DNA of 64,000 bases. Source: Candidatus Omnitrophota bacterium. Its GTDB lineage: Bacteria; Omnitrophota; Gorgyraeia; Zapsychrales; JAKLDJ01. Within the stretch, counting starts at the first letter, position 1, and each line of letters begins with the position of its first letter. Where the stretch lies: NCBI GenBank assembly GCA_022703585.1, contig JAKLDJ010000001.1, positions 182,891-246,890 on the forward strand, read 5' to 3'. Positions 1-64,000 of the stretch are shown in pieces. Position numbers and translations under genes: made by a program. The notes beneath the pieces are model-generated. The model ran no database searches. It saw nothing but the letters and a program-made list of their open reading frames with translations, and had not been told where the DNA came from.

Positions 1-600
1 CAGATCTTGGGGCGTGATCTTATCCATCGGTGTCGGAACGATAGGAATTACTGGCATATTTTGGGCGGCATTCGGATCTCCAGGGTTAGGGCGCATAACC
101 ATCTGCCTGTCCTTTGATGCCATCAGAATGACCGTGCCCTCGGGAATAATCAGTTCATCCAGCCATGGCGGAACAATAACACGGCCCTTACCGAAGTTAC
201 ATACGGCCAATAAGAGCCTCCCGGGATCAAAGGGCCTGTAATATTCTTCCAAAAATTCTCCGACAGGCCGCCCGTTTTTCTTAAGACAAAGCATGCTATC
301 CTGGGAAGCATAACCGTGCAGTTCCAGAATATTTATATCTTGAAAAACATGATATTGGCCGCGAGTCGCGCTGACCAGGTAAACCATGCCTTTCGAGTAA
401 TGTTCCAGTTTCGGATAATAGAAAGACGGAGCATCATCGGGGACAATGCCAAGCACCCTGAGCGTTTCTGCAAGCTCCGTGTACATTCTAAAGACAGCGC
501 CAAGGTCATTCTTGACTTCGGAGTAAATATACTGAAGATAATCCGGCTTATAAATACTGGTAGAATCTGATGCGTCTGCTTCGGCGGTTTGGGGTATCGT
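1..600 (-). other. C-terminal-side domain of unknown function, preceded by a signal-anchor-like segment; a second copy lies at 10363-10960
   Basis: Verified translation includes ...GRPVGEFLEEYYRPFDPGRLLLAVCNFGKGRVIVPPWLDELIIPEGTVILMASKDRQMVMRPNPGDPNAAQNMPVIPIVPTPMDKITPQDL. I could not assign a family. Confidence 0.4.
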
Positions 601-775
601 GCCAGGTCCGGATATAACCGACAGCAAGACCAGCGCCAAAATCAAAACAGGACGTCTCGCCCGAGAGATGTGCCGCGCTTCGCCGACGGCGCGCGAAGAA
701 AGAGGATTATTGTCCGTCCGGATCATCCCCAAAATGGGCCCGGACCCGATGAGGCCTAAAAGACTAAAGAGGGCC
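1..775. repeat. Direct repeat copy A of an intragenic segmental duplication (partner 10363-11137, about 98-99% nucleotide identity)
   Basis: Positions 1-775 align base for base with 10363-11137 with only a few mismatches (e.g. tactgg vs tgctgg, ataacc vs atgacc). Identity ends at 775/11137. The copy may extend beyond the window start. Confidence 0.9.
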
Positions 776-3700
776 GACCTCGTCCCGAGGAGCCATGACA
801 ATAGGGACTCGGCCCCGAGGGAGGCGGGCACAAAACACCCCAAAGCGCCGGAGGTGTCTTTTTTCTCAACCACAGGCGCCGACAAAAGACGCCGGGGGTC
901 AGTCTCGGCTTCAGAAATCTCAGAAAACCATTCCTTAAAGAACCGGAGATTACCGGCCATGGTTATTAAAAGCCTTTTACAGGCAATTAAAGTCATGTAT
1001 TCCATTTTTTCTTTTTCGTCCGCCGTGCCGATCGCAGTCCGTTTGCCCAAATCATTTTTGATAATACGGCTTCTAAAGAGGTGCTCAATGTATTTCACCG
1101 CTGCGGGCTCCGTGAATCTACGCCGCGAGAAAATCCCTAAGTGCTCCGCGGCCCATTTCACGATAAATTTCTGGGCCCATTGCTGCATTTCGGGATGGAG
1201 CCCGGTCAAATCCCTCAACCGGGACTTGATTTCCTTATTGGCAGCCGCCAGATTTATTAAACTGAAGAAATTATCCGTCAGAATCTTGTAGAGCTCATCA
1301 AAATCCTCGCTGCACCCAGCGATCAGGAAAAGCCGGTAAGCCGTATTCTCGATTTCCGCGTTATCGGTTTCGAATTCTTTTAATACAGCGGCCCGGCGCT
1401 GTATCTCTTCGGTAGTGAGCTTCATGATTCCGGACAAATCTTCCAAAATGACATCGGCGCGCCGGGCCGCGCGAAACTTAAGCTCCCCGGCAGATTCCTT
1501 GGGCGCTTTATGTTCTTCTCCCCGGACAAAAGTTGACTCACCTAAATGATAAGTCCGATTTTCATTTCCAAAGCGCTCAGCCAGCGGATGATCGCGAGGA
1601 ATATTCAGCGGATAAATATCGTAGATATGCTGGGGTTTTAATTCTTTGGCATTCAGGATAGCAAATAATTTTTCTTTCTGCTGCGGATCAAAATGTAAGA
1701 TTTTAGGGAAATAGCGGTAACGGCCCCTGGCCGAAGCCCCTTTCCATACCGCCAGACGATAAAGGGCCTCAATTTCTCCCCGCGTCCATTGTCCTAAATT
1801 CACTGCCCTTAAATAGCCCACGACCGTCGAAACAGCATCTTCTTTAAAAAGTTTATCCAGCTTCTTGGCTGTGTCCTTGTCAAAATCCGGATAAACCGCC
1901 ATAAAGAGTGCCACGGAACGGTTCTTGAGAGCCTGCTCTATAAATATCCTTTCCATGGCCTCAAAATGGCTTGCGTCCACTTCTTTGAGCCCGGTTAATT
2001 TCCTGAGCTGGCTGAGATCAAACATCTGCCAATTTTGAAGGACCACTTCGCTGGCATAGAGAGTGAGATGTTTTGCCATGACCTTTAATCTCTTATGGTG
2101 AGCGGCATTGCCGGACTCTGCCGCGCGAACCATTTCCTCCAAAACAGCATGCGAGAGAAACGGCCGGTGCTGAAATTCTTCATCACGGTCAAAGGCAAAA
2201 TCTTCGTGGTTGGCGGCAATTTCAGGATCAATCAGAAATTCCAACGTTTTTTGGGAAAGGGCTGAATGCATCAAAAGCCTGCCAAAATGATCCGGATGAG
2301 AATCCAGTGAATTAAAAATACTTAACGCATTCCACACCGTTTGTCCGGATTCTTCTTGAAAGTGGAGAGCAAAATAGCTCGTGGCATGGGCATATTCGGA
2401 GTGCGCGGCCCCGGCAAAAGAAGCCAAAAACGCGCCCATCTTCCGGCCGAATCTCTGGGGTGCCATTTCCATCAACAAATTCAATGTCCTGGTACCGTCC
2501 ACGTCAAGACGGTTGCTGTAATTACCCTCATACTTTGTCAGGGAATAAAACGCATGAGACGCCGGAATTTGTTCACGCTTATCTGTTCTCCTTGAATAAC
2601 TGTAAAATTTGACCGTGCCGTCCTCCGCTATCTCGGCCTCGCCCCCTGAGTAATAGTCAAACAAGAAATCATCATTCAGGAAGCTTCGGCGAGAAGCCGA
2701 TAAAACAGTTTGAAGAATACACCGCGTCCGGAGCAAATTCTTAAACGTCCACTCGTGGCCCATGGCGCTGCCTTTTTCATCCCTCCATACATGCCAATGT
2801 TCTTTATCAAGCACCTTCACAAGATGCTCAATAAAACGCTCCGGGTTAATTTCTCTTCTGGCTGCCAGGACATAATACCGGTTCATGACCGCATCTTTAT
2901 GGTTATTCCAGTCCTCTTCCGCAAGATTCTCAACGGCCAGGAAAAATTGTTCTGCCGGCATACCGGAAAAAGATTCTTCTGCGCCGGGCCGCGAAAAATC
3001 AAATCCGGGCAGGCAAAACTGGGTGGTTCGATATTCTTCCAAGGCAGGATTGATCGGGACAACGCCTTGATATTCCTGGATAAACTGGACAACAGCGTTA
3101 TAGGTAAACAGCATGCGCAAAACATGCCGTATCTGCTGACGGCCTCCGCATAATTCATAACCTTTATTGCTAAAATACCCCCGGCGTAAGACAGTGTCAA
3201 ATTTCATAAAGCGCCAGGTGATCTTGTCGGCAAACATCTCATAAAGCCCAGAATGATTCATGAAGAAATGCGGCTCATCCCGGACAGTTTTTTCTGTCTT
3301 GGTTTTCGCAATATTGTCAAAATAACCGACGCAGTACGGGTCGGCCGACAAGGGCGATTCGCCCGTGCGGACGGCAAATTCCAGGATAAAGGCCACCGTC
3401 GAGTAGCCTGAAATAAAACGGAAGGCCTCTCCCGGCTGCGGCTTCAGCTGAGGCAAAAGCGTTTCCCTGACTCTGTCAATATTGTCTTTAAAGCGATTAT
3501 CGGTTTTATAGGAATAATGAAGGCTTTGCAAATAACGGTTATGAAAATCAATCCAGCGCTCTTTGTCCGGGATATCGCCTTTTCTTATTTCCGTTGAGGT
3601 ATAAGCACTGCGCATGATTGTGCCGAGAGATTCGTCGTGCATGGGGTCCCGGTAACCACAGCCCATCTCAATGAGTACGATTTCCTGCTCGATCCCCAGG

Positions 3701-6700
3701 GCAATAAGCAAGGCATGGGCTGCTTGATATAGCGAGGTGTCCTCAAGCAAAAAGACCCAGGTTTTCCCGTCGCGGGGGATACTGGCCGCGCGGATAATCA
3801 ATTCAAAGATATCCCGGTTAAGTTCTGCGAAAGAAATCTTTCCGTCATCGAAGAAAACCGGATCATCGGTTTCCGGAGGATTATACGTAAAGCGCATATT
3901 GCCTTTTCTTAAAGCCGCCGCACATTGCGTGCTCATACCAGGCAACTGCTTGCGTTCTTTCTCGCTATCGCATTGATCAATCACGCCTCGGGCGAAGGAA
4001 TCAAAGCGTACTGCCATTTCCTGTGGAGTTAAGACCCGCAGTTTACCGCTGGAGTCTCTGACAAAAAGCGAAGCCATAGGCTCAAGAAGATACATTTGCG
4101 CTGCCCGGGAAAGATCCAGCGCCGCATCCTCGGCCTTTTCGTCCTCCAGAGGGGCAGAGAGTAACGGTGTCTCCACGTGCGCTAATTGCGGCACTTTCTC
4201 ATCCGGATTACTTAACAATCCCGGGACATAAGCCATGTCCAGGTCAGGGTGGTCTACGGACTTTCCAAAATACTTTGAGATTGAACCCGATAAACTTTCT
4301 TCAGGCGAAGTAATACTTTTAATCAGGTTTTCAAAATATTCCTTGACCCGGTCTTTTAACCAACCTCTTTCGTTCTCTTTTACTGTTTCATCATGACGGT
4401 CAGCCATGGCCTCAGCCAACGCCTGAAGGTTCCGGGTGAACTCAACATGTTCCTGGTCCAACGGATAGAGGCTGAAGTCATGGATGCCATTATTAAAATG
4501 ATGGGTTTGACTATTGAGCGGTACCCCTTCATCGCTTAAAACCCAAGCGGCGTTTTGATAAAAGACGATCAGGAAGCTTTTTTTGTGGATCTTGATTTCT
4601 CCGACCCAGGCGTCATCGTTGATTCTGAATATACTGGAATCATAAATGTCCACATAATGCGTTAAGGCCAACGGTAATTGATTTCGGCTAATAAATTGCC
4701 GGACTGCTTTTTGTTCGCGCCGGTTAAATTTCTTGCTTTCATCACTATTCGATTCATAAAAATCATTCTTGATAAGATATCCGCTCAATCGTTCAATAAC
4801 CTCTACGACAAGCCTGGCCTTTTGAACGGTAGGCATAACGTCGATACCACCCAGGAAGGTGAGGGTTTCGTAGGTGCGAGCCAAGCGTACGGCTTCAAGA
4901 TAAAACGGCCTTAAATATTGGGGAATTGATTTTAAAAGGCCAATTGCGGACGGCTTCCCTAAACGCAGCAGGGCAAAATCAATCAGGATGTGTTCGGCAA
5001 CATAAACCTGCGACGAAACGCGCTTGGGCACATCTTTGACGGCACCGTCTTCACCGAGAAGCCCGAGTTTTTCTGCGAGCGCGGAAATCCTCTTGTCCGA
5101 ACCTTTGGCAGTCTTCAATTCCCGTGCCAATACGCGCAGCTTCCGGCGGTCAATGAGCTCTCGGATTTCTTTGCGGATTTGATTTTCCGCTTTGCCTTCG
5201 AGAATGTCCTTTGTCCCGTCGGAAACCAGCCCTAAGACAGACAGGCCCGCCAACACAGCAGTGGCGGGCAGGCCCGTCAGCCCCGTTAGAAATGTTGAGG
5301 GCAATAAGAAAGTTGTTAAAGTTTCTAACGGGGCCAGGGGCAACGAGAAAAACGCGAGGCAGCCTAATGTTTCGATGCCTCGAATCATTTCATCTTGCTT
5401 TAATTTTCCGCTGATAACAATAGCAAGTTGCTCGTATACAACTGAGAAAAAAAGTTGAGAAGTTACATAGTCGGACACTCTTATGCTGCCCAACCCGCAG
5501 TTTTCAATGCGTAAGACGTGCGTGCCGCTTCTTACGAAATAGAGCTGTTCATTGTACCTGCCTCTTGAAAGGGGTTTGATAGCGGTCCATAAGTCCTCAC
5601 TAAATCCTGCAATATTCGCAGTTTCATCGTAATGGATAACGCCAACAAGCTTTCCTGCAGAGTAGTCAAAAACAAGAAGATGGCATCCCGGAGGTTTGTT
5701 AAAAGCTTCCGAAAGAGGGGGACACTTTTCCTTATCCCAGCGGATGCTGATTTTGACTGATTCGGGATCTAGTATCGTCCGATGCAGATAAAGCATGACC
5801 GGATTATTAGTCCCTTTGTAATACACTATTCCTCTGGAAAGCGCGTGCTGACGCAGCCAACCGAGAATAGCCTTGGCAATTCCTTCTATTTGAAAACAGG
5901 ATTGTATGTGCAGGTGTTCCAATAGCAATTGAAAGCCACCAAGATAAAAGACTAAACCCGACGTGCGGCTTTGGCCCGGATCATCGATTCTCAGGTTATC
6001 CAGCCATATTTCATATTCCATGCCATTCGAAAAAGGGTCGCTTGAGCGGACGATTATAATGGTATTGCCTCGATGGGGTATCAATACCTTGACAGGATTT
6101 TCATTTTCATCGCGCCATTCTTGGGTTCCGTCGAGATACGCCACCCTGCGCGTCCACTCTTTCCCTTGGGCCGTATCGTCATCCGCGCCTTCTCGCACCA
6201 TTCCCGCGATAAAGACGGCGGGCCCCGCCAGAAACAGCGGGGCGGGCAGGCCCGCCAAGGGCAAGAAGAGCGACACAAAACACCCTAAGCGCCCTTCATC
6301 CTGCGCGGTCAGTTGTTGATAGATCTCCTGCGCGCGGCGCTGCTGGTCTTCGGATAACCACGCTACAGCGAGCCCATAACTTTTTGCTTCGAGATTCGGG
6401 TCAGGCGAAACAGTATAACGGGAACTGACTTTATTTGTCTTCTCATCAAAATCAACATCGGTTTTCCATAAATCAAACCCGAGTTTTTGCGCGGCAAGCT
6501 TAAGCCCGTCGCGGATATGGGTATTAAAGATAACCGTGACGTTTTGCTGGCGCAGGTAATGCAATACCGCCAGCTGAATCGCCGCCAATTCGAAATTATC
6601 GGTGCCGTGCAGCTCATCTAAAATAAGCAGGCTATCCGGCGAGACACTATTAATCATATCCGCATACTGTTTGAGAATATTAAGAAAATAACTTTCGCCG

Positions 6701-9700
6701 GTTTCGGTCACATTGCGGCCGCCAAAAAACGCCCCGATTCCGCCGAATCTGCTCATGGTTAAATCACCCGAGACATAAAAACCATGCCGGGCAAAGACGG
6801 CATTGATAAAACTATTAAGCATCAAGACACTCTTGCCGCTGGAATTGGATCCGGTTAAGATAAAAACCGGTTTTTGGGGGTTAACCGCAAACGTCTGCGC
6901 CACACCTCCCTGCAAAAACGGCCCACGCCCCCAGAAAAATGAATGGTTCGGGAAGAAGGGCACGCTATTTTCTAATCTAAATGTTCGATACTCATCAACG
7001 AGAGTCGGCGGCTTGATAGAATTCAAAATGACAGAACGGGCAATACCGGTAAATTCATCCACCCCCCTAGCAATCATTTCAAAATCTTTCCCAAGATGCT
7101 GGCAGGCCTCGCCCCATTCAGCTTCCAATCTTTCCCGTTCTTTCTTGCTTAAACCGGCAGGATCAACGGTATATTTTTGGCGCATCTCATCCAGCGCGGA
7201 TTCCTTTTTCTTCAATAATAGTTTTGTTTTGTCAACCAGGGGCTCCTGCGGCAAGGTCTCAAGGTGCTCGATAAGCAATTTCATTTTTTCTGCAAGCGCG
7301 TTGATCTTTTTCTCATTTTCTTTAACATCATATCGCGCCCAGCGAAATTCCCGGTCGATACATTTATTGACCGACGAAAGAAGTTCGGTAATTTTTTTAA
7401 GGTACTCTGCGCCCTGGGAAACAAAAAGCGCAGTCAGGCGCAGGCGGACATCAACCGCATCCTCCTGCGCGGTATCGTCCTCTTTTTCTGTCTGCGGCGC
7501 GGTTGTATCCCTGCCGCCTAAAAGGGACCCAAGAATTTCTTCTTTATCCGTCGGTTCTTCAATATTATCTGCATCGACATCCCCGGTAAATATGCCGAGC
7601 AACCGTTCCGGGGTCTTACGGAACGCGAAATGTTCCCCAGGGTAGAGATTAGCAAAAACCACTTCAAACATTGAAAAAGCCGCGGATTTCTTATCCAGCT
7701 TCAAAGAGGATGATTTGGAATCGCCCATTTTCTTAATCGGAATCTCCTCAATATCGCCCCCCTCGATAATGCAGCGATAATACGCCCGCGCCAAAGTAAT
7801 CATCTCCTTAGGAAACCCGGCCTGGCGCATTAATTCAATCGCGTAGCTGTGTTTCGCGATGCCGGGCACCAGTCCAAAATCAGGAACAATCCGGCCCTTG
7901 TTCTCTTTAACCGTATGCATAAAGGGCTGTTGGCCGGTGCGCGCCTGTAACAACTCGTACATTTTCTTCAAGTGGCTGGTAACAATAACCGTGGCGCCGC
8001 TACGGATCAGATCTTCGATAAGGACCGTGGCAATCGCCACCAATTCGTGATAATCCGTACCCGTCGGGACTTCATCAAGGATAATCAAATCTCCGGGCCC
8101 GGCCTTTTTAATCAAGTCGGTTAATTTTTCAATCAACATCCCGAAATAACCGTATCCTTTGTGCAGCTGTTCCGGCTCGGGAAAGACCGTGTAGATATTA
8201 CGAAAGACACCGATGGCCGGCGCGTCATCGGGAACCGGCAGGCCAACCTGGGTATAAAGCGCGGCACGGCCAAGGCCGCGGGCAGTCGTGGTTTTTCCAC
8301 CCATGTTGGGGCCGCTCAATAAAAGCGCATTATGCCCGCCGCCTAAAGAAATCTCGACGGGGTGAATGCCTTTTAAATCATCCTGTTGTTCTCTTTCGCG
8401 TTTCCGTCGCGTCTTCGCATCAAAGGCCTCAAGGAATCCATCGAAGATGTCACGGTCCGGTTTTGGCTGGAAGGCACGGGCAATGAGAACCGGGTTGCGG
8501 TAACGTGCCAATTGTATAGTGCCGGTAGGCTGCATGATATCGGCAAAACGGTAATTATTCTGAACGGCAAAAAGGGCAACACGCGCGTAATAATCAATTT
8601 CTGCCAAATAATTCTGCATCATCCCTGCCGGGAATTGGCGCAGGAACGAATGCTTGTCGCCGCTATTTTTCGCGCGCCGCCTTGAGGCGTAGGCCTCGTC
8701 TCGTTCCCGGCGTTGACGCCCCGCAGCTTGCCGAACAAAAGAGTCCAGACGTCTTAGGCCGCCTAAGAAGCCATCTGCATCATCATCGTCTTCTACATCC
8801 AAATCGTCATCGTCTGAAGAATCTGAAATTTCTTCCTCATCTTCATCCGGCTCGCTGTCTTTTTTGGCGGCTTTTTGTTGACGCTTCTCAAACAAACCCG
8901 GATTTTGAGGATACGGGTCCCCTTCTATGTGAGATTCGATGTTAATCACCCATAAATCGGATAATTTCTCCACCAGCGAAGAAAATTCTTTTATAACATC
9001 ATCAAAGAGCCCCTGCTCTTGAAGCTGTTGCTGTATTTCCTCCTCCATACTCGGCTTATCATTGTCCGAGTCATCGTCTTCATACAGCGCGCTATAAAGG
9101 TTACGCCCCTTATCGCGCCGATGAGAAGCATTCTTTTCCCGGTGCTTTTTAAGAATTTCCGGAGCGACAAAAACATTCGCATCGACGCGCCAATCTCCCA
9201 CAGCATTTAAGAATTTCCTTCGTTCCAAAAATGGCTTTAGCTCCGGCCGGCGTAACGTGACCTGAATCTTTTCTTTCCATCGTGCCATAACCGGAGAATC
9301 ACTCTCGGGCAATGCCTGTTCGACAGCCTCCAGGCACAAAATAACTCGTCCCAGCGCAATCAAAGCAGGCGCCACGTCGGGATAAGCCTCATCGAATTCC
9401 AGGGGTCCGTCGTTCCATTGCCCCTTGGATTCACGGTCCAAAATACTACTCCTCTCTTTCTTTTTGGGCACAAAGAACGGATAATGGTAGCGTCGTAACG
9501 TGCGCAGCTCTGAAAGAAAGTCTTCTTTTTCTTTATGATAGCGCGCGATTAGTTTTGTAAGCTGTTCTAGCGGATTGTCTTCGCTTGTTCCCTGAGCGGC
9601 AATCTCCATCAGGCTTTCGATGGCACGCCGGGCTATTAGAATATCCTTGTGCTGCCTCCAGGGGCGCAAGAGCCTTTGTTGCAAAATCCTTTGCACGTCT

Positions 9701-54700: not shown

Positions 54701-57700
54701 TTTCCTTTGATGATGCCGTAACGCTTGATCTCATCTGGATGTTCTTCAGCGTACTTGCAAAGACTTGAATAAGTAATTCCTGTAACTTTAGCTGCCCCGG
54801 CTATATTAAGTCCTCTCAATTTCTCCTGGCCGGCCTGGGCCAGGAGGGCCGCGATTCTTAACTCCCCTGCACCCTTGACGATCCCGTAACGTATAAAATC
54901 GTCGGGGTGCCGCCGAAGATGCCTGGCGAGAGATAGAATTTTTACTCTGATAATCCTGGCTGCCTGGGTGACGGTGCGGCCCTTAAGTTTTTCCGGGCCG
55001 GCCTGGGCCAGAAGTACGGAGATTTTGGATCTCCTTTCTCCCTCTTTTATTTCGTAGAGTTTACGATCTTCCGGATGCTCATTAAAATATTGCAAAAGGC
55101 CGCCCTGGCTTACCCCGATTAGCGCAGCTGCTTGAGCAACGGTAAGGCCGCGAAGTTTTTCCACTCCCATCTGGGCCAGGAGGCCGGGAATCCTGGACGC
55201 TCTCTGCCCCCTGGTTATTCCATAGCGTGCGGCCTCGTCCGGGTGTTTCCTGAAATATTGAGAAAGACTTGTGTCACTCACCCCTATCACTTTGGCCGCC
55301 CTAAAGATGCTGAGGCCTCTTAATTTCTCTATCCCTGCCTGAGCCAGGAGATCGGAAATTGCCACCTGTTTCGGACCCTTGACGATCCCGTAACGATTGA
55401 TCTCATCCGGATGATTCTTGAGATATATTTGAAGGACACCTGACCCTGTTTTGATAACTTGAGCAGCCTGAACAATATTAAGGCCCCTCAATTTTTCTAT
55501 CCCCGCCTCGGCCAAAAGGCCTGGGATACGGGAATAAATGCTATCTCTCGCCTTCTTTCTCTCCGACGGAGACGGCATCACAACCCCTTCATAAATGAAA
55601 TAGGCCTGGTTGATCCCGACGCCCAATGCCGCGGCCGCGCTCTTAAGATTCTCATACTTCTTGCCGAATTTACCCTCCAGCATCCCAACGATAACAAGAC
55701 GTTGCGCCTGTCTAAGAGTGGGTAACGCCTGCGGCTCCGCGGCAAAGAGGCCGGCAAATTCAAGATAGCATTGCCTAACCTCGTGGGCAGCCACAGAGGC
55801 TTTGTCAACATTCTTTAAGGCGTTGCCGTAGACGGCTTCCGAGATATCCAGGAGCCTGGCGGCAATCCCGTAATTTCCCCGCGCCAGGATATTCGCCGTA
55901 TAGGCAAAAAGGATCTTGGCAAATTCAAGATAATACCTCTGCGGTAAATGGCTTCTCTCAAAACTTTCTTTAAGAAATCTCATGGCTGTTTCGATGTCGC
56001 GGTGATTACCATTCCCTCCATTTGAACCGCGCCGCTTCTCATAGGTTCTCAAGAATTCAAACGAGATACCGGCTTCGTGCAGAAAATCAAAAAAGCGCTG
56101 CGTATCGGCTCCGGAAAGACCGATAATCCCTCGAGAAGTCAGGCGCACCGGTTCGTAGAGGATGGCAGCCAGTTTTTGTTCTGTCCAGATTCGGTAGGCC
56201 TCGGCATCGGCCTCACGACTTTGATACTGCGCCTCCTCTAAAAAGAAGGGAATTTCCTGTAACAGCGCCCATGCGGCATCTTTGGATTTACAGATCAGGT
56301 GGACTATGCCCCAGAGAATTTCAAGCCGCTCAACGATAAAATTAAAATTCCTAAGCACCTCTGTGCGCAACCTGCGGCTGCCTTCTTCCGTTGCGGCCTG
56401 GGCCTGTTCCAAAATCTGCTCAACCGCATCCCCTTCAAAAAGACGCGGCAAATCACCGCTACCGGATCTTTCTAATTCTTTAAACTGCGGGACAAAGGCC
56501 TTTAACAAACGTTCCTCAAGATTTGAATAAATACGATAGCTCCCCGGCGCCCCCTGACGGGCCGCGCGCCGCTCGGCCTGGGTATCAATACGCCGTTCGT
56601 CGTTAGCCATGAGAATAACGTGCAGCCCTCCGCGCGCGAGCGCCGCCTCATCAAGAACAATGTCTGTCCCGCGTCCGGCGACATTGGTTGCGACCGTGAC
56701 CGCGCCCAAAGCACCTGCCGCGGCAATGATAACAGCCTCCGCCTCATCGTCGAGGCCGTCGAGGACCTGGTGCTCTATTTCCATCTGACGCAACAGCACG
56801 CTCACGGCATGAGCATCCCGGATAGTCATTGTCACCGCCAAAACCGGACGGCCCTTTTTGTGTTCCTCGATGATCTCCTGGGCCATAGCCGCATATTCTT
56901 CTGCCGCGTTTTCCAGGACCGTCGTCGGATATCGCGTCAAACGTGACGATCTGTGCGGAGGAATTGCAACACTTTGAATGCCATAGTTTTCTTCTATCTC
57001 CGCAGCCTGCGCGCCGATGGTTCCACTCATGCCGCTCACCACTGCCCCCAGCGCCTTCAGGCGCCGATAAAACATCGGAAAAGTAGTCAACGCCTCGGCC
57101 CGATAGGGAAGAGTGATGCCCACCTGCGCCTTGATCTCGACAAATTGATGGAGATAATTCATCCACATGTGGCTGTGTTTCCTGCGGCCGGTGTAAGGGT
57201 CGATAATCACAATGCGCCCTCCTTCACGGATAAATTGCACATTCTCTTCATAAAACTCCTTGACCACAAGCGCCGTCTCCAGTAATCGCCGGGTCACCGG
57301 CCGCTCAAAATTGACAAATAATGACTGTGCCTGCGCAGAGGATATAGCAGCAGTAATCCCTTGCGGGGTTAACATGGCCGTCCGGTGATCCCGATTAAGC
57401 TCATAATCTCCGGGCGTATTTAGTTTCTCGGCTATTTCATAAAGCGCCTTTAGGAAAATCGGGAGCATCTTGGCGCTCTCTCCCTTCGAGAGAATCAGGG
57501 GTGAAGCCGACTCATCAACCCACACGCTGTCGGCCTCATCCACAATCACAAAGGACGGCGCATAATGAATCGGTATCCTATAGCGCGGAGCAAGGCTTAA
57601 ATTCGCGCTTAGATAATCAAAGACCGCCGCGCTTTTTTCGGCATAGAGGATATCAGCGCCGTAAGCCTGTTTCTCTTCCTTCTGAATGAGACTCTGCGAG

Positions 57701-60700
57701 AATCCCTTGACCCTATAATAGCGCCCTTCACAGACACAACTGACCGATACGTCCAGCGGAGAAAGAATCTCCGCGGCCTGCAGGGCATCACGCCTGGCCA
57801 GGTAATTGTTGAACGTATGAACGTGCGCGTGCACTCCTCGCGGCAACGAGTGCACATAAGCGGCCAGGATTCCGGCGTAGGTCTTACCTTCACCGGACTC
57901 CATTTCGACAGCGAAACCTTGATACAAACAGGCCGCGGCCAGGATCTGCTCGTCATAAAGCCGTTTCCCGTTCAATCTTCTGATGCGTTCCCGGAGAATG
58001 GCAAAAGCTTCAACCAGAACTTCGTCAAGAGTATCCGGCGTGGCCCGTTTCTTCAACTCCAGGGCTTTTTGATACAAGCCACTGTCCGAAAGCGCCCGCA
58101 GCGCCTCTTCTTCGGCCGCGACCTCTTGAACAATCCTTGTTAATTCGTCCGGCGGAGCGGGCAGACGGCCTCCGTCGATAGAAGAGAACGCTCCGACATT
58201 ATCCGGCGCCTGTGTCCGTGCATCTTCCTCATCCCTTACCGTACCCGGGAAGGCAAAGACGAACGGCAACAAGGCCAAAATCCAAATCCCCGGCCACGCC
58301 AAGATGAAACCGCAAAAATCTTCTTCCCCGAAGGGCAGCTGCGCGTCCTTTAGGGGTAATTCCGACTGGGTCCGGTCTAACCCTAAAATAAACCGCACAA
58401 CCGCTAATTCATCCGGATCGCTCAAATCCTTGGAATAAAATTCCATCGCATAAACCGCGGCCTTGGGAGTTATCCCTCTAAATTTCCGGAGATCATTGCG
58501 CAGACGGACAATCGCGTTATAAAACAGGTCCTCCGGCGTCCAATGGTCCAGCGCCCGGGCAATCATCATAGCCCATCGAATACGCTCACCGATTGTAGTC
58601 AAACGTGCGCCCGTGTCCCTTAACAGGGCAATCATGGTATAGCCGTGACACGGCAGAACATCAGCCAGAATCTCATGATAAAACTCTTCTTTAACAGCCC
58701 AGGGAATCGTTCGCGTCGCGGCAACCCGCTGGCCGACAAAATCGTTTAAGGCTCTTTCAATCTGCTCATACGCCTCCCGGACTTTTTCGCGCTCACCCGG
58801 CATAAGCCAATTGCCTAACTCTGCCGCCCAGGCCGTGTCCGTCCCGTCAGGATTGTCGTGCAAAATTTCAGAAAGTATCCGGGGCAACGTAGCCCGCAAC
58901 CGGCTCTCGGTAAAGGGCTGAATAAACAGGACATACGAATCCAACCCTTCTTTCGAGAACCAATCATTACTCTTAAAGAAAATATTCCGGCATAGGCGCG
59001 CAAATTCATCCCAGTCTTTTAAAACGCTCTTTACGCCGCTCCTGAAAGGCCTTTCAAGGTCAATCCGATTTTGAATGATGTCGACGATGTCCCGTAAGCC
59101 TTCCCGGAATTCTCGGCGGGTACGGGCAAACTCATAATTATGCTCAAGGACTTCATCCGCCCTGAAGAATTGAACTTCGCGGGCAGACTCCTCTCCCGGC
59201 ACCTGAACCGTCATGAAACGGCCGATATCCGAGCGATAAAATCCGGAAACCGCACCTGTAGCCTTCTTTCCGTCGATGTCGATAAGCACAACCTGGTCAC
59301 CCGAAACAAACAATGCCTCTTTCTTTGCCGAAACCTCCGCATCGATTTCCAGGGGAATAACGCGCAAGATATTGCTGAACTTGATTCGATAAACTTCTCC
59401 TCCCGGCAATAACCGAATCAACGGCCGGTCATCGTTTTCAACCTCCGCCGGCTCTAAGATAACAACCTTGCATCCCGAAACCGTAGTACGGTCAATAACC
59501 ACTTGGTCTGTCAGGGTAAATTGCATATAGGCAATCAGCCCCTTGCGCAGGCTAATCTGCGCTGCCGGCTCCCGGTCGCTCATCAGGTACTGGAATATTT
59601 GATTTTCCGGGACAAGCGGTTTCAGCCCCAGCTTTTCCAAAAGGCTATTCACGCGCGCGAACTCTTCTGGGGTAAGCTCCGAGCTCGGTTTATCCAACAG
59701 AGAACTAAGCTCCCTTAAAGATGCATTAGTATCATCGTTAACGGCCATGCCCAAAACCGGCAATAACATCAGCGGTAGCATAAAGCAGGCAAGATTTTCT
59801 CCTCTTTGTTTTCCGGCAATCATTTCATTTCTATCGTCAAACAACGTCAATCCAAGCTCAAATCCAAGCTCTTGGGTAATAACACGCCGGTATTCTTCAA
59901 ATTCCTTTCGCGTATACATCATAGTAAGATCAGCCAGAATCCCGGGCAACCTGGTGCCAAAAGGAGAAACTTCTTCATTCGCAATTTTAGATTCTTTAAG
60001 TAATGCCTGCATTTGCGTGTTACCGCCGTACAGGATGGTGCACATGGCCCCGGGCGTTACGATACGATGGCTGACCATTGTGCCTGTTATTCTGAATATA
60101 TCCGCCAGGGCCAGTAAATCGCCCGTCGAAGGCAAGCTGTCTGCCGTCATATTTCGCTGAACCGGTAAAATAACCCCATCTTTGGGATGGGTATGCCCTT
60201 GCTCTTTAAAAGCGGCCGTTGTCATCTCGGAAAAATTATCCGTCATTTCAGTAAGCGTTTTTAAATCGGCCCACAGCGGAATAAGCTGTTCCCCTCTAAG
60301 CGTCGACGTAAGCAGACCCCGCTCGACACCGTCTTTGAGATCTCTGCCTTTTCGAAAATACCAGACATCCTCTTGCTCTAACCGGCCAAAAGTAATCTCG
60401 GAATCTGAAGCTGTTATGGCCAACGCTTGATAAAAAACATCTGTCGCAGTAATCGAACCCGGTATACAAACAACTCTTAATTGTTCATACGGCTTAAGCG
60501 CGCTTAATCGGATCAAAAGATCTTGGAGAGAATTAAATGTTATCGTCTTTGTCCGCGGAATATATGTTCCCATCTTTTCAAGTTGAAATATCAAGTATTC
60601 AACCACATCCCCAACAACATCGCTAAAGGTGGCCATCACAGCAGGAACCTCTTTTAAAAACGGCAACAAAGCGACCCTCCTCGTATTCGTTGCCCACTCA

Positions 60701-63700
60701 AGCTCCTCGCTCACCAAAAATCTTTTACAGATATCGTCAACGTTTTCCCTGCTCAGAATTACCATCTCAATACCATTGATACGCGTGAGCCGTTCGGTGA
60801 AAATCCTTCGGACAATATCAAACTCATCATCCGGGGCCATAATGCCAAGGAAGTGCGGGTCATGCGCCAAAACAAGCAATAGCTCGTCGATCTGCTGGTT
60901 AACCTGCGCCCTTCCATCCTCCAGGCTGCCGATGACGGGTAAAACAACCAAGCTAATTAGCGCCCCCAGGGCAAAAATGTTTTCAAGCCCGGCAAAAGGC
61001 AAGATCAAGGCAGCAAGCCCTTGCTGTCTTGATTGTTCGGATCGTTTTTGCTTCTGTGCTCGGTTAGAATCCGGCGTATAGCCCAAATCTTCAAACGGAC
61101 TTACATATCCTTCACCGCTATGAAACGGGCTTCGAACCGCGGCTCTTTTGATTCTCCTTCTGACTTGGAAAAGTAATTCAATATCGGCTGCTAAACCCTT
61201 GAACCGGGGATCGCGGTCTAGCTTTCTTCGATAATCATTAATGATGCCACTGACACGATTTCTTGATATCTTAAAATGGGCAGCCACCTCCGTGTTCGAC
61301 CGGCCAAGAACAAGCCATTGATTGATAATGCGCCGGTTTCTATCAGATAACCCCAGCTGCGCCATCGTATAGTTCAGGTCAGAGCTTACTCTCTCCCACT
61401 CATCATTATCAATTAACATATCAAGAACATTCCTTGTCCCGTCGGGGACATCGCCGTTCCTTAAGCCGTCAGTCGACAGGCCATTGCCGTTTTCTTCTTG
61501 CTCGGAAATCGCCTGGAGCGATAGCGTACGCCGCTGCCGCTTCATTTCCTTGAAAACTCCCAGGCCTCTTAAATATGTGATCACTTCATTGCGGATAACA
61601 CCCCTTCGCGCAGTAGGATATTCTGACAAGCGACTGCCGTTTAAGAGGGAAATAAAACTGGGGAAACCTAAAGTGCCGCCCCGGCGCATAACATAGGTCA
61701 CGGCTCTTTTAAGCGCGAGATCACCGATAAAGTTAATTTCAACGCTCGAGATTGTTTCCAAACCATGATTTCCCCAAGTGCAATAATTCAAATAGTACCT
61801 GACCCGGGCCCGCAATAAAGGAGCTAAAACTTCCCTTAAGGCTAAGTAGGCACTGCTGTTCCCCTTTTCGATAAGCCTTAATAGCGCCTTCCCTCGTTCG
61901 TATTTGCCTGCGATGCCAAGTGCTTCTTCAACTTCTTTTTCATCCGCATACGTCCCTTCCCATTGAGGAATCTTTCTTTTGTCAGAAGGTTTCTCCAATC
62001 CTAAAATTTTGCGTGCGTTTGTCATTCCGCCGACCATCCTCACCGCAATTCTTAGCCGACCGGTCAGTTGTCCGTCGATAAATGTCTCAACCGGCCTTCC
62101 GGATTCTTCCCATACCTTCTTTAACCAAAGAGCTTTGACCTCAAAAGGGACATACCCGGAGACTATGACCTCCCCGTGTTTGAGCCTTCGCTCTATCCAG
62201 CCAAGCCAAAACTCTGCCAAAGTCCTGAATTCCGACCTGTCCTTGGAGGCTGATAAATCATCCTGTAGCCGGTAAAGCGTTTCAACGGAATATTCCAGGA
62301 TATGCTTCCGGTAGGAATACAAAAGCCCCCGGAGGCTCTTGCCGCCAAAAATCCCGTTTCCGGATTGCGTGAAATCGTCCGGAATCAAATCCCAGATAGA
62401 ATCTTTCTTGACCGGCTGACTTCTAAGAAGAACATGGATAAATCTTCTAAAGATGGCGGTCTTAACTTCAGGAGATAGTTTGTGAATATCCTGCCAAAAA
62501 TCCTTTTCTCCCGAAGACCGGACTTCCCTGAACCGATTGACATAAAAGTCACAGACACTCTTTAAGGCCGGCCGCCAGTAGCGCCTAAGATCACCAATAT
62601 GAACCCCGAGATCTTCCTCGATGCGAGAGACAACCTCGCTGCGGGACAGAGGGCCTGATGTCGTGCTCATGACCAAAACAATTGCCTGCACGACAGAAAT
62701 ATGTTCAGCGATAATCGATTTTGTCTCACCGCTGCTCCTTTCCAATGCCGCCTGTAATATCTTCGGCCAGTGACAAGAAATCGCCCTTCCTTTGAGATGA
62801 ATTTTCTCGGCCAACCATACTTGAGACGGCACCCGGCCGTTTTCCTCTACGGTTCTTATAAGCAGGCTGACCGCCTCATCTAAATCAAATCTCCCTAAGG
62901 AGGATTGTTCCCCCTCCCACAACCTGATAGCTTCTTTGACTCTTTCATCACCCCGCGCCTTCAAGGTTTCCAGAACCTTCGACCAATAGCTCCCAATCGT
63001 ATCAGGATCAACGCTAAATACTTTGCCCAGCTGAGGCTGGGTGGGCAGATAGACTCGCGCAGGATCGTTTTCAAACAATGACATAATGTAATTGGCAATA
63101 GCCTCAAAAGGATCAATATAGTACTGCACCACCCATCTTAGTTTTTCATTATCCTGTTCCATCAAGGCAGGCAAAATTTTGGTCGGCCAGTACGCCTTAA
63201 TCGTGCGCAAGCTGACACGGGCTTTAAGAGCAACTGTTTCCTGTGTCGGAAGTTTTCCAGTTTTTTCAAAGATATTTTTGATGATCCGAACAGTTTTTTT
63301 CAGGTCAAATGTGCCGCGGGAGGCACGCTGTTGGTTGCGGGCGCGGACAATTTCCGCTACTCTGGCATCGCCCTGTTCTTCAAGGCCGCCTAAGATTTTC
63401 TGAAGATGAAGCCCTGCGGTAGAAATGCTGACCCCAACCCCATCGGCAATAAAGGGAATGGTGGGCATTTTTTTGGCTTGCGGATTTTTACTGAAATAAT
63501 CCAAGAGAAAATCAATGGTCCTCTGCAAATCAAAATCACCGCTGGGTTTTCTTTCTTTGGCCATACCGATAACAGGGAAGAAAGAACAAAGGGCCGCACC
63601 AACTGTCCACTGACCAAAATTAAAGAGGGCCGCTGCAGCACCAGTTCCAACCCCACCAGCCACGGAAGAGGTTATTAGAACTGTCAACTCAAAGAGAGTT

Positions 63701-64000: not shown

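Follow-up and report, generated by a model that had tools for sequence, protein, structure and literature searches.

The 64,000 nucleotides (nt) at positions 182,891 to 246,890 of contig JAKLDJ010000001.1 (assembly GCA_022703585.1), called the window here, are read on the minus strand as one open reading frame (ORF) without any stop codon. Our results indicate that the window is very probably an internal 64-kb segment of a 257,412-bp giant gene of an uncultivated Candidatus Omnitrophota bacterium, which encodes 85,803 residues. Its product is built of enzyme and DNA-binding modules, and these modules are separated by short hydrophobic linkers with a recurring two-sided motif.

Stop codons were counted by six-frame translation. 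In the minus-strand frame whose codons lie at plus positions (3,2,1), (6,5,4) and so on, none of the 21,333 codons was TAA, TAG or TGA. The remaining five frames contained 588, 724, 1142, 1439 and 891 stops, and their longest open runs were 139-288 codons. With stops at about 3-7% of the codons in the other frames, an open run of 21,333 codons by chance is effectively impossible. The frame is as follows:

1..63999 (-): stop-free frame, 21,333 codons, open at both ends; codons ~56,854-78,186 of the 85,803-residue gene by the placement given below

The coding signal was uniform. The GC contents of the three codon positions followed GC1 > GC3 > GC2 (0.57, 0.53 and 0.40), with little variation over 21 of 21 consecutive 3-kb blocks, and a self-trained codon table scored this frame best in all 212 sliding 600-nt segments. 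The GC skew was negative over the entire window. Pfam and NCBIfam domains were found from about amino acid (aa) 800 to aa 19,200, every one in the open frame and distributed over most of its length; the final 2,078 aa of the translation gave zero matches to these families. Neither a tRNA nor an Rfam family was found in the 64 kb. The frame is coding over the full window, far beyond chance. The earlier note on this DNA, which was made from the letters alone, had claimed a single gene longer than 64 kb and open at both ends, and the stop count (0 versus 588-1439 in the other frames) confirmed it. The note had also seen that only short off-frame or antisense ORFs were listed, and none in this phase. 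Its explanation was right as well, because the listing leaves out ORFs that run off both ends.

A hydropathy scan and inspection of the translation identified 30 short hydrophobic segments of 18-58 aa, here called linkers. They carry a recurring motif, (D/E)-x-L-G-C-F on the N side and L-x-G-M-(V/I)-x-(D/E) on the C side. The linkers are listed below in the order of translation:

63547..63600 (-): linker 1, atypical, ..GAALCSFFPVIGMAKERK
60910..61026 (-): linker 2, QQGLAALILPF...LPVIGSLEDGR
59731..59802 (-): linker 3, GENLACFMLPLMLLPVLGMAVNDD
58222..58326 (-): linker 4, EEDFCGFILAW...FAFPGTVRDEED
52033..52155 (-): linker 5, DDLNGFLPF...LLPVLGTVQGVSDS
49597..49686 (-): linker 6, ETDSLLGAFLPG...WLTGMVEEGD
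44554..44640 (-): linker 7, canonical short form, PTDHLGCFILPFMAGMSAVFLVGMMDEDY
43669..43824 (-): linker 8, long, GGLRCFVPL...LPVIFLGQIDNG
42136..42216 (-): linker 9, QEGSLECIAFFFPALLFGLAGTISDNG
40522..40593 (-): linker 10, N-side motif only, ESEALGCFFVPWVIPESL
39448..39528 (-): linker 11, atypical, SPLEVMAILVGVLLAAAGNREEDS
37705..37800 (-): linker 12, GEDVSCFVFPLLGLPILPLLSLGAVDQQEDD
36148..36231 (-): linker 13, GEDVSCLVFLTLAPLAAIAGMVFDDSE
34744..34833 (-): linker 14, TKLHAFIIPDMFFFILPLLGVLQSN
32854..32946 (-): linker 15, AVAIGCLVLPFALGPLMFMSLAGAVNNDG
28288..28440 (-): linker 16, long, with palindromic element, GNLGCLTPF...PLEILTTFLLPSTFLTGLVGMVQEE
27064..27156 (-): linker 17, EDTLGCFVFPVFSLFLLGVIKDAVDRDDD
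24781..24906 (-): linker 18, atypical, followed by basic residues, EDTLRALSPLEIGMFILAGGVILNALGALVLLRR
22885..22998 (-): linker 19, SDKLRAFMFFGPLMFLPASAFAGLSEAGPLGMIKGEKE
20620..20787 (-): linker 20, long, with palindromic element
19261..19359 (-): linker 21, DDSLGCFLPGVVFLSSAGLPVVFMTGMTEDIR
17200..17289 (-): linker 22, QESLECCLMMPLAGMSFLFLAGMTKSSDS
14635..14799 (-): linker 23, long, with palindromic element, SQSLSCFILPLPLLEILTTFLLPSTFLAGL...VGMVSPEDWED
13474..13575 (-): linker 24, RETLGCFMLPLTLPGLPFLPLVGMVRTDNNPLS
12415..12501 (-): linker 25, PQGLGCFIPGLIFLPVLMAGIAPRTEDS
11056..11184 (-): linker 26, upstream flank of duplicated module copy 1, with the 50-nt D8 repeat
9862..10008 (-): linker 27, downstream flank of copy 1, with the D8 repeat; region matching the start of contig L002 (see below)
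6175..6300 (-): linker 28, EGRLGCFVSLFLPLAGLPAPLFLAGPAVFIAGMVREGADDD
5206..5379 (-): linker 29, long, with palindromic element
694..855 (-): linker 30, upstream flank of duplicated module copy 2

The motif counts cover the 29 linkers that can be anchored on each side, and core lengths were measured in 27. On the N side, acidic residues stand at -4/-5, Leu at -2 (23/29) and Gly at -1 (12/29). Position 0 is Cys in 19 of the 29 linkers, Ala in 8 and Gly in 2, and position +1 is Phe in 18, then I/V/L and P. On the C side, with Gly as the anchor, Met follows directly in 15 of 29 linkers, and V/I and then an acidic cluster come after this position. The MAFFT consensus reads L-x-C-F-x-L-P-x-x-x-G-L-P-x-x-x-x-x-G-M. 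A strict regular expression for the whole motif matched 16 times, compared with a mean of 0.05 in 300 residue shuffles. The flanks on both sides of the linkers are net acidic (-1.2 per 12 aa versus a background of 0.0), and a linker holds on average about 3 Pro and 4 Gly. The core from Cys to Gly has 12-17 residues in 12 of 27 linkers, and several linkers contain uncharged runs of at least 19 residues. For most linkers the 19-mer insertion energy was unfavourable on a rough Hessa-type scale. Besides the linkers, hydrophobic parts of the 21,333 aa include two signal-anchor-like segments and the membrane domain of a CPBP protein.

Many different synonymous codons encode the conserved Leu, Gly and Cys, which indicates conservation at the protein level. 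An RNA-level role of the linkers was rejected, since their folding energy is only 1.4 kcal/mol below that elsewhere and no Rfam family matched. The failure of RNA-level readings together with the synonymous codon variation shows that the linkers are protein-level features. Two established motif definitions were also compared and rejected: in a lipobox the hydrophobic segment would be on the other side of the Cys, and in a prepilin-peptidase site on the other side of the Gly.

At the DNA level, weak intrinsic-terminator-like sites (a GC hairpin of 5-9 bp stem with a T-rich tail, on the coding strand) were about 4-fold enriched in linkers, where 12 of the 54 sites lie compared with 3.1 expected (p=5e-5). 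Examples on the minus strand are 6216-6230, 43719-43733, 19293-19310, 44584-44605 and 36170-36186. Such sites may be a by-product of codon order, with Phe/Leu/Ile codons coming after Gly/Ala/Pro codons, or they may serve for pausing or attenuation.

The window was linked to the larger gene through the linkers. A profile of 27 window linkers was searched against 1.84 billion representative proteins and found one true relative, P0121, a protein of 7,465 aa with seven linker matches (E=6.7e-11). Two further matches were dismissed as unrelated repeat proteins. It makes up the C-terminal 7,465 residues of a larger gene, for which the call is 85,803 residues on each of three long contigs:

ENA ERZ761563 NODE_2, 1.17 Mb: gene called at 85,803 residues
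JGI Ga0116241_10000010, 0.82 Mb: gene called at 85,803 residues
NCBI GCA_035453785.1 DAOTDT010000001.1, 1.61 Mb: gene called at 85,803 residues, ORF at 849,554-1,106,965

The final 9.4 kb of the gene and the 7 kb downstream of it (16.4 kb) are 100% identical across the three contigs, and five genes 3' of the giant gene have identical counterparts among NCBI proteins that carry the name Candidatus Omnitrophota bacterium. With a stop codon, 85,803 codons make 257,412 bp, the same as the ORF length in West-Roberts et al. 2023. The longest ORF in that work has 257,412 bp and 85,804 codons and comes from a wastewater Omnitrophota (bioRxiv 10.1101/2023.11.21.568195).

On a 530-kb JGI contig (L002), 138 nt separate the P0121 gene from the contig start, and the frame of the gene stays open to this edge; another contig (L003) ends in an identical copy of P0121. 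Up to the edge, the open frame of L002 reads ...RDEAKEDDDWKEVETLRALMFLSPLAFLSASALFNLLGLVGTGPFL..., which corresponds to the region of linker 27 in the window. Positions 1-150 of L002 are 98.7% identical to window positions 10044-9895, and the two diverge thereafter. Linker 27 flanks a 1.2-kb module which the window carries twice:

9895..11137 (-): duplicated module copy 1, signal-peptide-like start, 3' end 98.7% identical to the first 150 nt of L002
1..775 (-): duplicated module copy 2, continuing beyond the window

The copies are 10.4 kb apart and 99% identical, with 7 mismatches over window positions 1-775. On the simplest reading, L002 would continue the window past a gap of about 318 nt, the short-read assemblies having broken at the duplication. 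By arithmetic, the window would then occupy codons ~56,854-78,186 of the gene, equal to about DAOTDT010000001.1:1,020,112-1,084,111 in reverse complement, and we consider this placement highly probable. The earlier note had thought of Omnitrophota as a possible lineage and had expected the gene to extend past the window. Through this join both hold: the neighbours of the gene's 3' end are named Omnitrophota, and the gene reaches 85,803 residues (about 257 kb) on three contigs. The novelty which the note implied does not stand, as the ORF matches the record-holder of West-Roberts et al. 2023 and longer ones have since been reported.

Several observations weigh against placing the window in this gene. 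The window has no direct sequence overlap with the fetched 3' end; the join passes through the duplicated module, of which a third copy is possible. The exact 33-nt core of a palindromic element found in four linkers had no match in viral, genome and metagenome contig collections, and the exact DNA of the window was not found there. A guessed partial protein of the contig between the repeat copies was searched in ten boundary variants, and 0 of 10 were in the protein collection. The linker profile matched no other giant protein; the motif may be private to this gene, or the profile may be too weak. Other searches were negative: 5,000 aa of P0121 were not found among metagenome contigs, a query of the methyltransferase module, its linker and module B gave zero matches among 5.8 billion proteins, and the linker alignment gave zero matches in a word-indexed protein search.

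Could the window belong to a different, paralogous giant gene of the same or a close Omnitrophota genome, which merely shares the duplicated module? The missing direct overlap speaks for it, as the DNA common to the window and L002 is only the 150-nt end of the module with its linker. However, L002 starts just where an assembler is expected to break if the module recurs 10 kb farther upstream, which is its arrangement in the window. The length of the window also stays within 85,803 codons when the 7,617 downstream codons are added, and linker families and composition are common to the window and P0121/L002. We therefore regard a paralogous gene as improbable.

That chimeric joining or collapse of paralogues at internal repeats created the open frame is hardly credible: the window does hold a 99%-identical 1.2-kb duplication and repeated linker DNA, and two short-read JGI assemblies (L002 and L003) break exactly at the duplication, but a chimera would not keep one stop-free frame with uniform codon statistics over 64 kb, the 7 differences between the module copies show that they were not collapsed, West-Roberts et al. 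describe the 257,412-bp ORF as manually curated (bioRxiv 10.1101/2023.11.21.568195), and the identical 85,803-residue call on three contigs independently assembled from different sources (ENA, JGI and NCBI), each 100% identical over the fetched 16.4 kb, answers the mis-assembly concern of the earlier note.

The genes next to the giant gene were recorded as well. Directly 3' of it (L002 22647-32536; also L004-L006) lie two PilZ genes and a glycoside hydrolase family 94 (GH94) gene of the cellobiose/chitobiose phosphorylase type, and the same stretch encodes a 1,147-aa PT-HINT polymorphic-toxin-type protein and a sugar ABC transporter. Secretion or carbohydrate-import genes are a trait of the neighbourhood of Omnitrophota giant genes; no type II secretion system genes were seen in the 10 kb downstream of this gene. 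The giant protein ends in ...SPQEAECG*.

With 30 linkers, the translation falls into about 31 modules, each 133-2,022 aa long, and it is not a repetitive adhesin. The earlier note had described a mosaic of unrelated enzymatic and DNA-binding domains, and the Pfam and NCBIfam matches agree with it:

56335..58143 (-): SecA-like ATPase module 1 (SecA_DEAD, PP_bind, P-loop_SecA), without helical scaffold or wing
52600..55512 (-): about 18 tandem ~60-aa HTH_3-like DNA-binding repeats
46834..49020 (-): SecA-like ATPase module 2, 40-45% identical to module 1
46624-46707 (-): Fis-type HTH_8 after SecA-like module 2
44098..44223 (-): Methyltransf_11 core of the 243-aa methyltransferase module between linkers 7 and 8
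37915..38775 (-): sigma-70 family module, regions 1.2, 2, 3 and 4
36232..37704 (-): module with HExxH motif (aa 8766-9256, motif at aa 9031), without family match, possible zinc protease
33424..33888 (-): PPDK_N / PEP-synthase-like ATP-binding domain
28465..32742 (-): HAD hydrolase, HemK-like methyltransferase and PRK06922-type S-adenosylmethionine (SAM) methyltransferase in one module
27736..28026 (-): predicted core of a CPBP / Rce1-like glutamic intramembrane protease, in the module at aa 11,905-12,281
25585..26220 (-): histidine-kinase-type HATPase_c module
21367..22881 (-): M20 / allantoate-amidohydrolase-like module
17368..19233 (-): full-length PRK02122-type protein (NagB-like deaminase and PIG-L deacetylase)
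16006..17166 (-): adenosine-deaminase module
12844..13071 (-): PrmA-like SAM methyltransferase core
6400..8616 (-): two MutS_V / MutS2-like ATPase domains in one module

The window holds four SAM methyltransferases, and the adenosine-deaminase module has an additional weak HDIG (HD-type) match. For about 40% of the window protein, including the final 2,078 aa, neither a protein family nor a PDB sequence matched; a PDB sequence search of the Pfam-dark modules returned only sigma factors and weak methyltransferase matches.

Several matches reach from linker to linker. Position 6 of the allantoate-amidohydrolase profile aligns 8 aa past the linker Met, and the adenosine deaminase match begins 17 aa past it. 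Positions 32-637 of the 653 in the PRK02122 profile fill a single 657-aa module, and the match to PRK06922 runs as far as profile position 676 of 677 and stops 16 aa ahead of the next linker Cys. Judged from these alignments, the modules that match full-length profiles are whole proteins whose predicted ends adjoin the linkers.

The two SecA-like modules gave Pfam E-values of 1e-55 to 1e-56, and their alignment with canonical SecA stops before the scaffold and wing. Their scores are far below the equivalog cut-offs (391 versus 862 bits, and 377-415 versus 814 bits). A search with the SecA module returned only canonical SecA (31-37% identity) and short wingless SecA-like proteins, and no giant relative. 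When GTDB genomes were scanned with both SecA paralogues, one locus was found (L001, CAYSSX010000005.1, uncultured bacterium). Its ORF at 2198-20729 has 6,177 aa and a SecA-like domain 33% identical to that of the window, with few hydrophobic segments and 0 L-G-C-F linkers; large SecA-containing proteins therefore exist without this linker grammar. P0057, P0113, P0107 and P0114 are stand-alone SecA-like proteins of about 660 aa, which lack scaffold and wing and have the architecture seen in the giant gene. Some such stand-alone wingless proteins are annotated 'prepilin peptidase' in Desulfobacterales metagenome-assembled genomes. These ~660-aa proteins may be free-living relatives of the SecA module. 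The HTH_3-like array after SecA-like module 1 is unusually long for one module, and its repeats are 60-85% identical at the DNA level.

The modules are also the units in which this gene has been duplicated. Alignments between paralogous modules run from one linker to the next. W4 and W9 share 28% identity along their full length, and W10 corresponds to the C-terminal 500 aa of W2. Three old pairs with 28-45% identity stand in mirrored order (A-x-B-SecA ... SecA-x-B-A), which suggests module-level duplication with rearrangement:

61027-63546 / 40594-42135 (plus coordinates): paralogous pair, aa 152-991 / 7289-7802
58327-59730 / 42217-43668 (plus coordinates): paralogous pair, aa 1424-1891 / 6778-7261
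52156-58221 / 44641-49596 (plus coordinates): paralogous pair, aa 1927-3948 / 4802-6453

In the recent 1.2-kb duplication, the linkers that bound the module carry the D8 repeat at 737-786, 9914-9963 and 11099-11148. Because whole modules are the unit of paralogy and the duplication is flanked by linker repeats, we infer that the linkers probably serve as joints for in-frame recombination. An exchange between two similar linkers would leave the frame intact while it duplicates or moves modules, and the gene could grow in this way as modules are duplicated and shuffled through the joints.

Four linkers contain an 89-nt palindromic element with a stem of 17-20 bp and a loop of 27 nt (5263-5351, 14692-14780, 20653-20741 and 28303-28391). 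The 33-nt core is 100% identical in 4 of 4 copies while the flanks have diverged, and the element is translated in frame as PLE(I/T)LTTFLLPSTFLTGL. No covariation was observed between the copies. The element could be an in-frame mobile palindromic insert, or its identity could be due to gene conversion between linkers. Rickettsia palindromic elements are in-frame palindromic repeats inside genes. The window element is in frame like them, but the two have no sequence relationship, and gene conversion between linkers explains the copies in the window equally well. A separate hairpin lies in the coding frame at 63620-63715 (-), with a 14-bp perfect stem (GGGCCGCUGCAGCA...UGCUGCAGCGGCCC) and a minimum free energy of -59.3 kcal/mol for 141 nt (z=-5.9 versus shuffles). 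It adjoins the only clearly transmembrane-like helix of the window (aa 77-95).

What do the linkers do in the protein? In the explanation that we prefer, the gene would be translated as a multi-enzyme polyprotein. The linkers would hold cytoplasmic-type enzyme modules at the inner membrane, and they would also be the likeliest sites of proteolytic processing, plausibly cut by the ORF's own CPBP/Rce1-type intramembrane protease. Cleavage would release individual proteins or anchor them to lipid. The protease module matches with E=2e-12, and its EExxxR (aa 12002), FxxxH (aa 12045) and HxxxN (aa 12082) motifs are intact. Several complete proteins in one ORF with conserved junctions, the feature expected of a polyprotein, are present. 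Both copies of the duplicated module contain a signal-peptide-like stretch (RARRPVLILALVLLSVISGPGTIPQTAEA/DAS) about 25 aa past the linker Met:

~10990-11050 and ~630-690: signal-peptide-like stretch, aa 17655-17690 and 21109-21144

A stretch at this position makes most sense if the module gains a free N-terminus. As it stands, it is predicted to be an internal export signal within the giant ORF. The HExxH-motif module in the list above and a second HExxH motif at aa 4814, in another module without family match, are possible additional processing proteases.

Four points count against cleavage. About one third of the linkers have Ala or Gly in place of the Cys. Residues other than Met also occur right past the C-side Gly. 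For the CPBP module, the scores stay under the NCBIfam cut-offs (29.9 versus 75 bits for MrtJ, and 36.6 versus 270 for MroQ). The published reading takes the hydrophobic segments as transmembrane anchors of an uncleaved protein (bioRxiv 10.64898/2026.06.07.730766). Based on the sequence features above, we propose a membrane-tethered polyprotein cleaved at its linkers only tentatively. The wider proposal, that the whole 85,803-residue ORF is a true polyprotein of about 100 or more complete proteins, cut at the linkers by its own CPBP protease and with linkers doubling as recombination joints, must be called rather doubtful.

On the published reading, the linkers would be ordinary transmembrane helices of an uncleaved polytopic protein, one membrane-anchored machine of 85,803 residues with about one pass through the inner membrane per 700 residues. 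Numerous transmembrane helices, about one per 370-1000 residues, are predicted in all giant Omnitrophota proteins of both preprints, and the 30 hydrophobic linkers in 21,333 aa, several with the long uncharged runs, are in line with them. But a single span between modules would put alternate modules outside the cell, and neighbouring modules need ATP, SAM or DNA. The SecA ATPase adjoins a SAM methyltransferase at linker 7, the PPDK_N-like (ATP-grasp-type) domain adjoins the HAD and SAM methyltransferases at linker 15, and sigma-70 and MutS ATPase modules are also present. Simple single-pass junctions are thus unlikely. Moreover, the 12-17-residue cores are short for a transmembrane helix, the linkers are rich in Pro and Gly with mostly unfavourable insertion energy on the same rough scale, and the acidic flanks on both sides are contrary to the positive-inside rule. 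A mere anchor would also need no conserved two-sided motif. An uncleaved polytopic protein is possible, though well short of likely.

Alternatively, the linkers may be monotopic or hairpin tethers without cleavage, that is, Pro/Gly-kinked dips into the cytoplasmic leaflet which leave the modules in the cytoplasm like beads on a string. The part C-F-x-L-P-x-x-x-G-L-P-x-x-x-x-x-G-M of the consensus can be read as two short hydrophobic halves around a Gly/Pro turn. The short cores and the acidic residues on both sides suit such a dip, and it solves the topology problem of cytoplasmic-type enzymes. However, it leaves the conserved Cys and the enrichment of Met right after the invariant Gly unexplained, as well as the signal-peptide-like stretch in the duplicated module and the intramembrane protease module. 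We consider uncleaved hairpin tethers unlikely.

It is very improbable that the gene is an operon in disguise, in which modules are made by internal initiation at the post-linker Met or from internal transcripts and the open frame is a by-product of the loss of stop codons. An ATG does follow the invariant Gly in 15-18 of 30 linkers (Met is 2% overall), modules equal whole proteins, promoter-like sites are slightly above the shuffle expectation, and terminator-like hairpins are enriched in the linkers. But a series of some 30 modules that keeps one phase without a single stop is no accident, and without stop codons ribosomes from upstream would read through. One third of the linkers have non-start codons (ACG, GCC, CAA, AGC and similar) at the Met position. 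No Shine-Dalgarno-like sequence lies at the right distance upstream of the linker ATGs, and Shine-Dalgarno-driven internal initiation was rejected for this reason. The terminator-like sites are weak and are explained by the codons of the linkers.

The giant gene itself is already known. It is real and one of the most extreme known; it has been published since 2023 and has since been surpassed by a protein of 147,155 aa. The linker grammar appears to be undescribed in the literature. The words 'linker' and 'polyprotein' occur 0 times in the texts of West-Roberts et al. 2023 and of Nielsen & Lui 2026, and 'cleav' occurs 0 times in the latter. The field asks whether such giants act as one chain or get cut, and where. 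Processing sites are reported missing in the literature; candidates for them are now offered by the linker motif together with the embedded CPBP protease. Since about 37 predicted junctions (30 in the window and 7 in the 3' end) give exact peptide termini, the question of cutting is directly testable. The linker-flanked module duplication further suggests a concrete growth mechanism for such genes. If the polyprotein reading is true, it would supply the cleavage points which West-Roberts et al. called missing, with a gene that grows by accretion at its linkers.

West-Roberts et al. 2023 reported numerous transmembrane regions in all full-length giant genes, and divergent SecA_DEAD and preprotein-binding domains without scaffold and wing in most of the giants; one class contains methyltransferases, peptidases and similar enzymes. 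They treat the hydrophobic segments as transmembrane anchors; in their description the cleavage points are unknown, and C39 or S8 peptidases were proposed as possible processors (bioRxiv 10.1101/2023.11.21.568195). Their 257,412-bp ORF agrees with the window gene in length, in its Omnitrophota origin, in wingless SecA_DEAD/PP_bind and hydrophobic segments, and in methyltransferase and peptidase content. In contrast, a text search of the paper found no L-G-C-F...G-M linker motif, no modules as whole proteins and no CPBP module. Several features of Omnitrophota giants were also found here. A single ORF of more than 90 kb is obtained through the inferred join (85,803 residues), with more than 64 kb open within the window itself. 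The window has numerous hydrophobic segments and two wingless copies of SecA_DEAD with preprotein-binding domain, and its enzyme families include methyltransferases, an M20 peptidase, CPBP, HATPase, HAD and the weak HDIG match. The Omnitrophota giant 'Archaeovorins' also carry glycosyltransferases, glycoside hydrolases and NUDIX; the window, which is a quarter of the gene, yielded none of these three, and neither a dockerin nor a HEAT array.

Another likeness is the 'multi-enzyme metabolic cluster' class of Nielsen & Lui 2026, which comes from Omnitrophota (Gorgyraeia) and reaches 147,155 aa. In this class PF08241, PF02518, HAD and HD (Pfam module 1) occur with about one transmembrane helix per 370-1000 aa; the giants of that study come from groundwater and the Baltic, and DeepTMHMM predicts them to be membrane-anchored or secreted (bioRxiv 10.64898/2026.06.07.730766). 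As in the window, many Pfam families tile one polypeptide, and PF08241, PF02518, HAD, HD and the PF07517 SecA are shared. The density of transmembrane helices is similar to that of the hydrophobic linkers in the window, about 1 per 700 aa.

The SecA-like modules share the DEAD motor, the preprotein cross-linking domain and the second P-loop domain with canonical SecA and SecA2, which align with them at 31-37% identity. The helical scaffold, the wing and the C-terminal zinc-binding tail of canonical SecA are absent from them, and with this and their scores below the cut-offs they do not pass as canonical translocases. Unlike canonical SecA, the SecA domain of the window is embedded in a giant ORF and is followed by HTH arrays.

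Sorting signals with a conserved Cys offer another comparison. C-terminal signals of this kind (MYXO-, JDVT-, Synerg- and CGP-CTERM) are cut by CPBP-family myxosortases (bioRxiv 10.1101/2023.06.07.544157; PMC11980579). Like them, the window linkers combine a conserved-Cys signature, a hydrophobic segment and a charged cluster, and a CPBP/Rce1-type protease, weakly similar to MrtJ/MroQ, is encoded alongside, here within the same ORF. Unlike MYXO-CTERM, the element is internal rather than C-terminal, has about 30 copies and is followed by another module. Its charged cluster is acidic (-1.2 per 12 aa) and not Arg-rich, and a test for an Arg-rich C-terminal cluster was negative. The Cys (19/29) is not invariant. 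A hydrophobic stretch always follows the signature, but in many linkers it lacks the length of a transmembrane helix and holds too much Pro and Gly for one. The flanking modules are cytoplasmic-type enzymes and not exported surface proteins, and the CPBP module stays below the family cut-offs. On these characters the linkers and the CPBP module resemble Cys-type sorting signals, but they would not be members of this class.

Viral and organellar polyproteins, such as those of picornaviruses and flaviviruses, contain many unrelated complete proteins in one ORF, with embedded proteases and short conserved junctions, and the junctions of the flavivirus polyprotein include membrane segments. The giant gene differs from them in being cellular and bacterial, in its length (about 25 times longer) and in its junction motif, which is unrelated to theirs; its polyprotein status is our reading of the sequence. 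If this reading is true, a gene-expression strategy known from viruses, and not from cellular prokaryotes, would operate in a bacterium.

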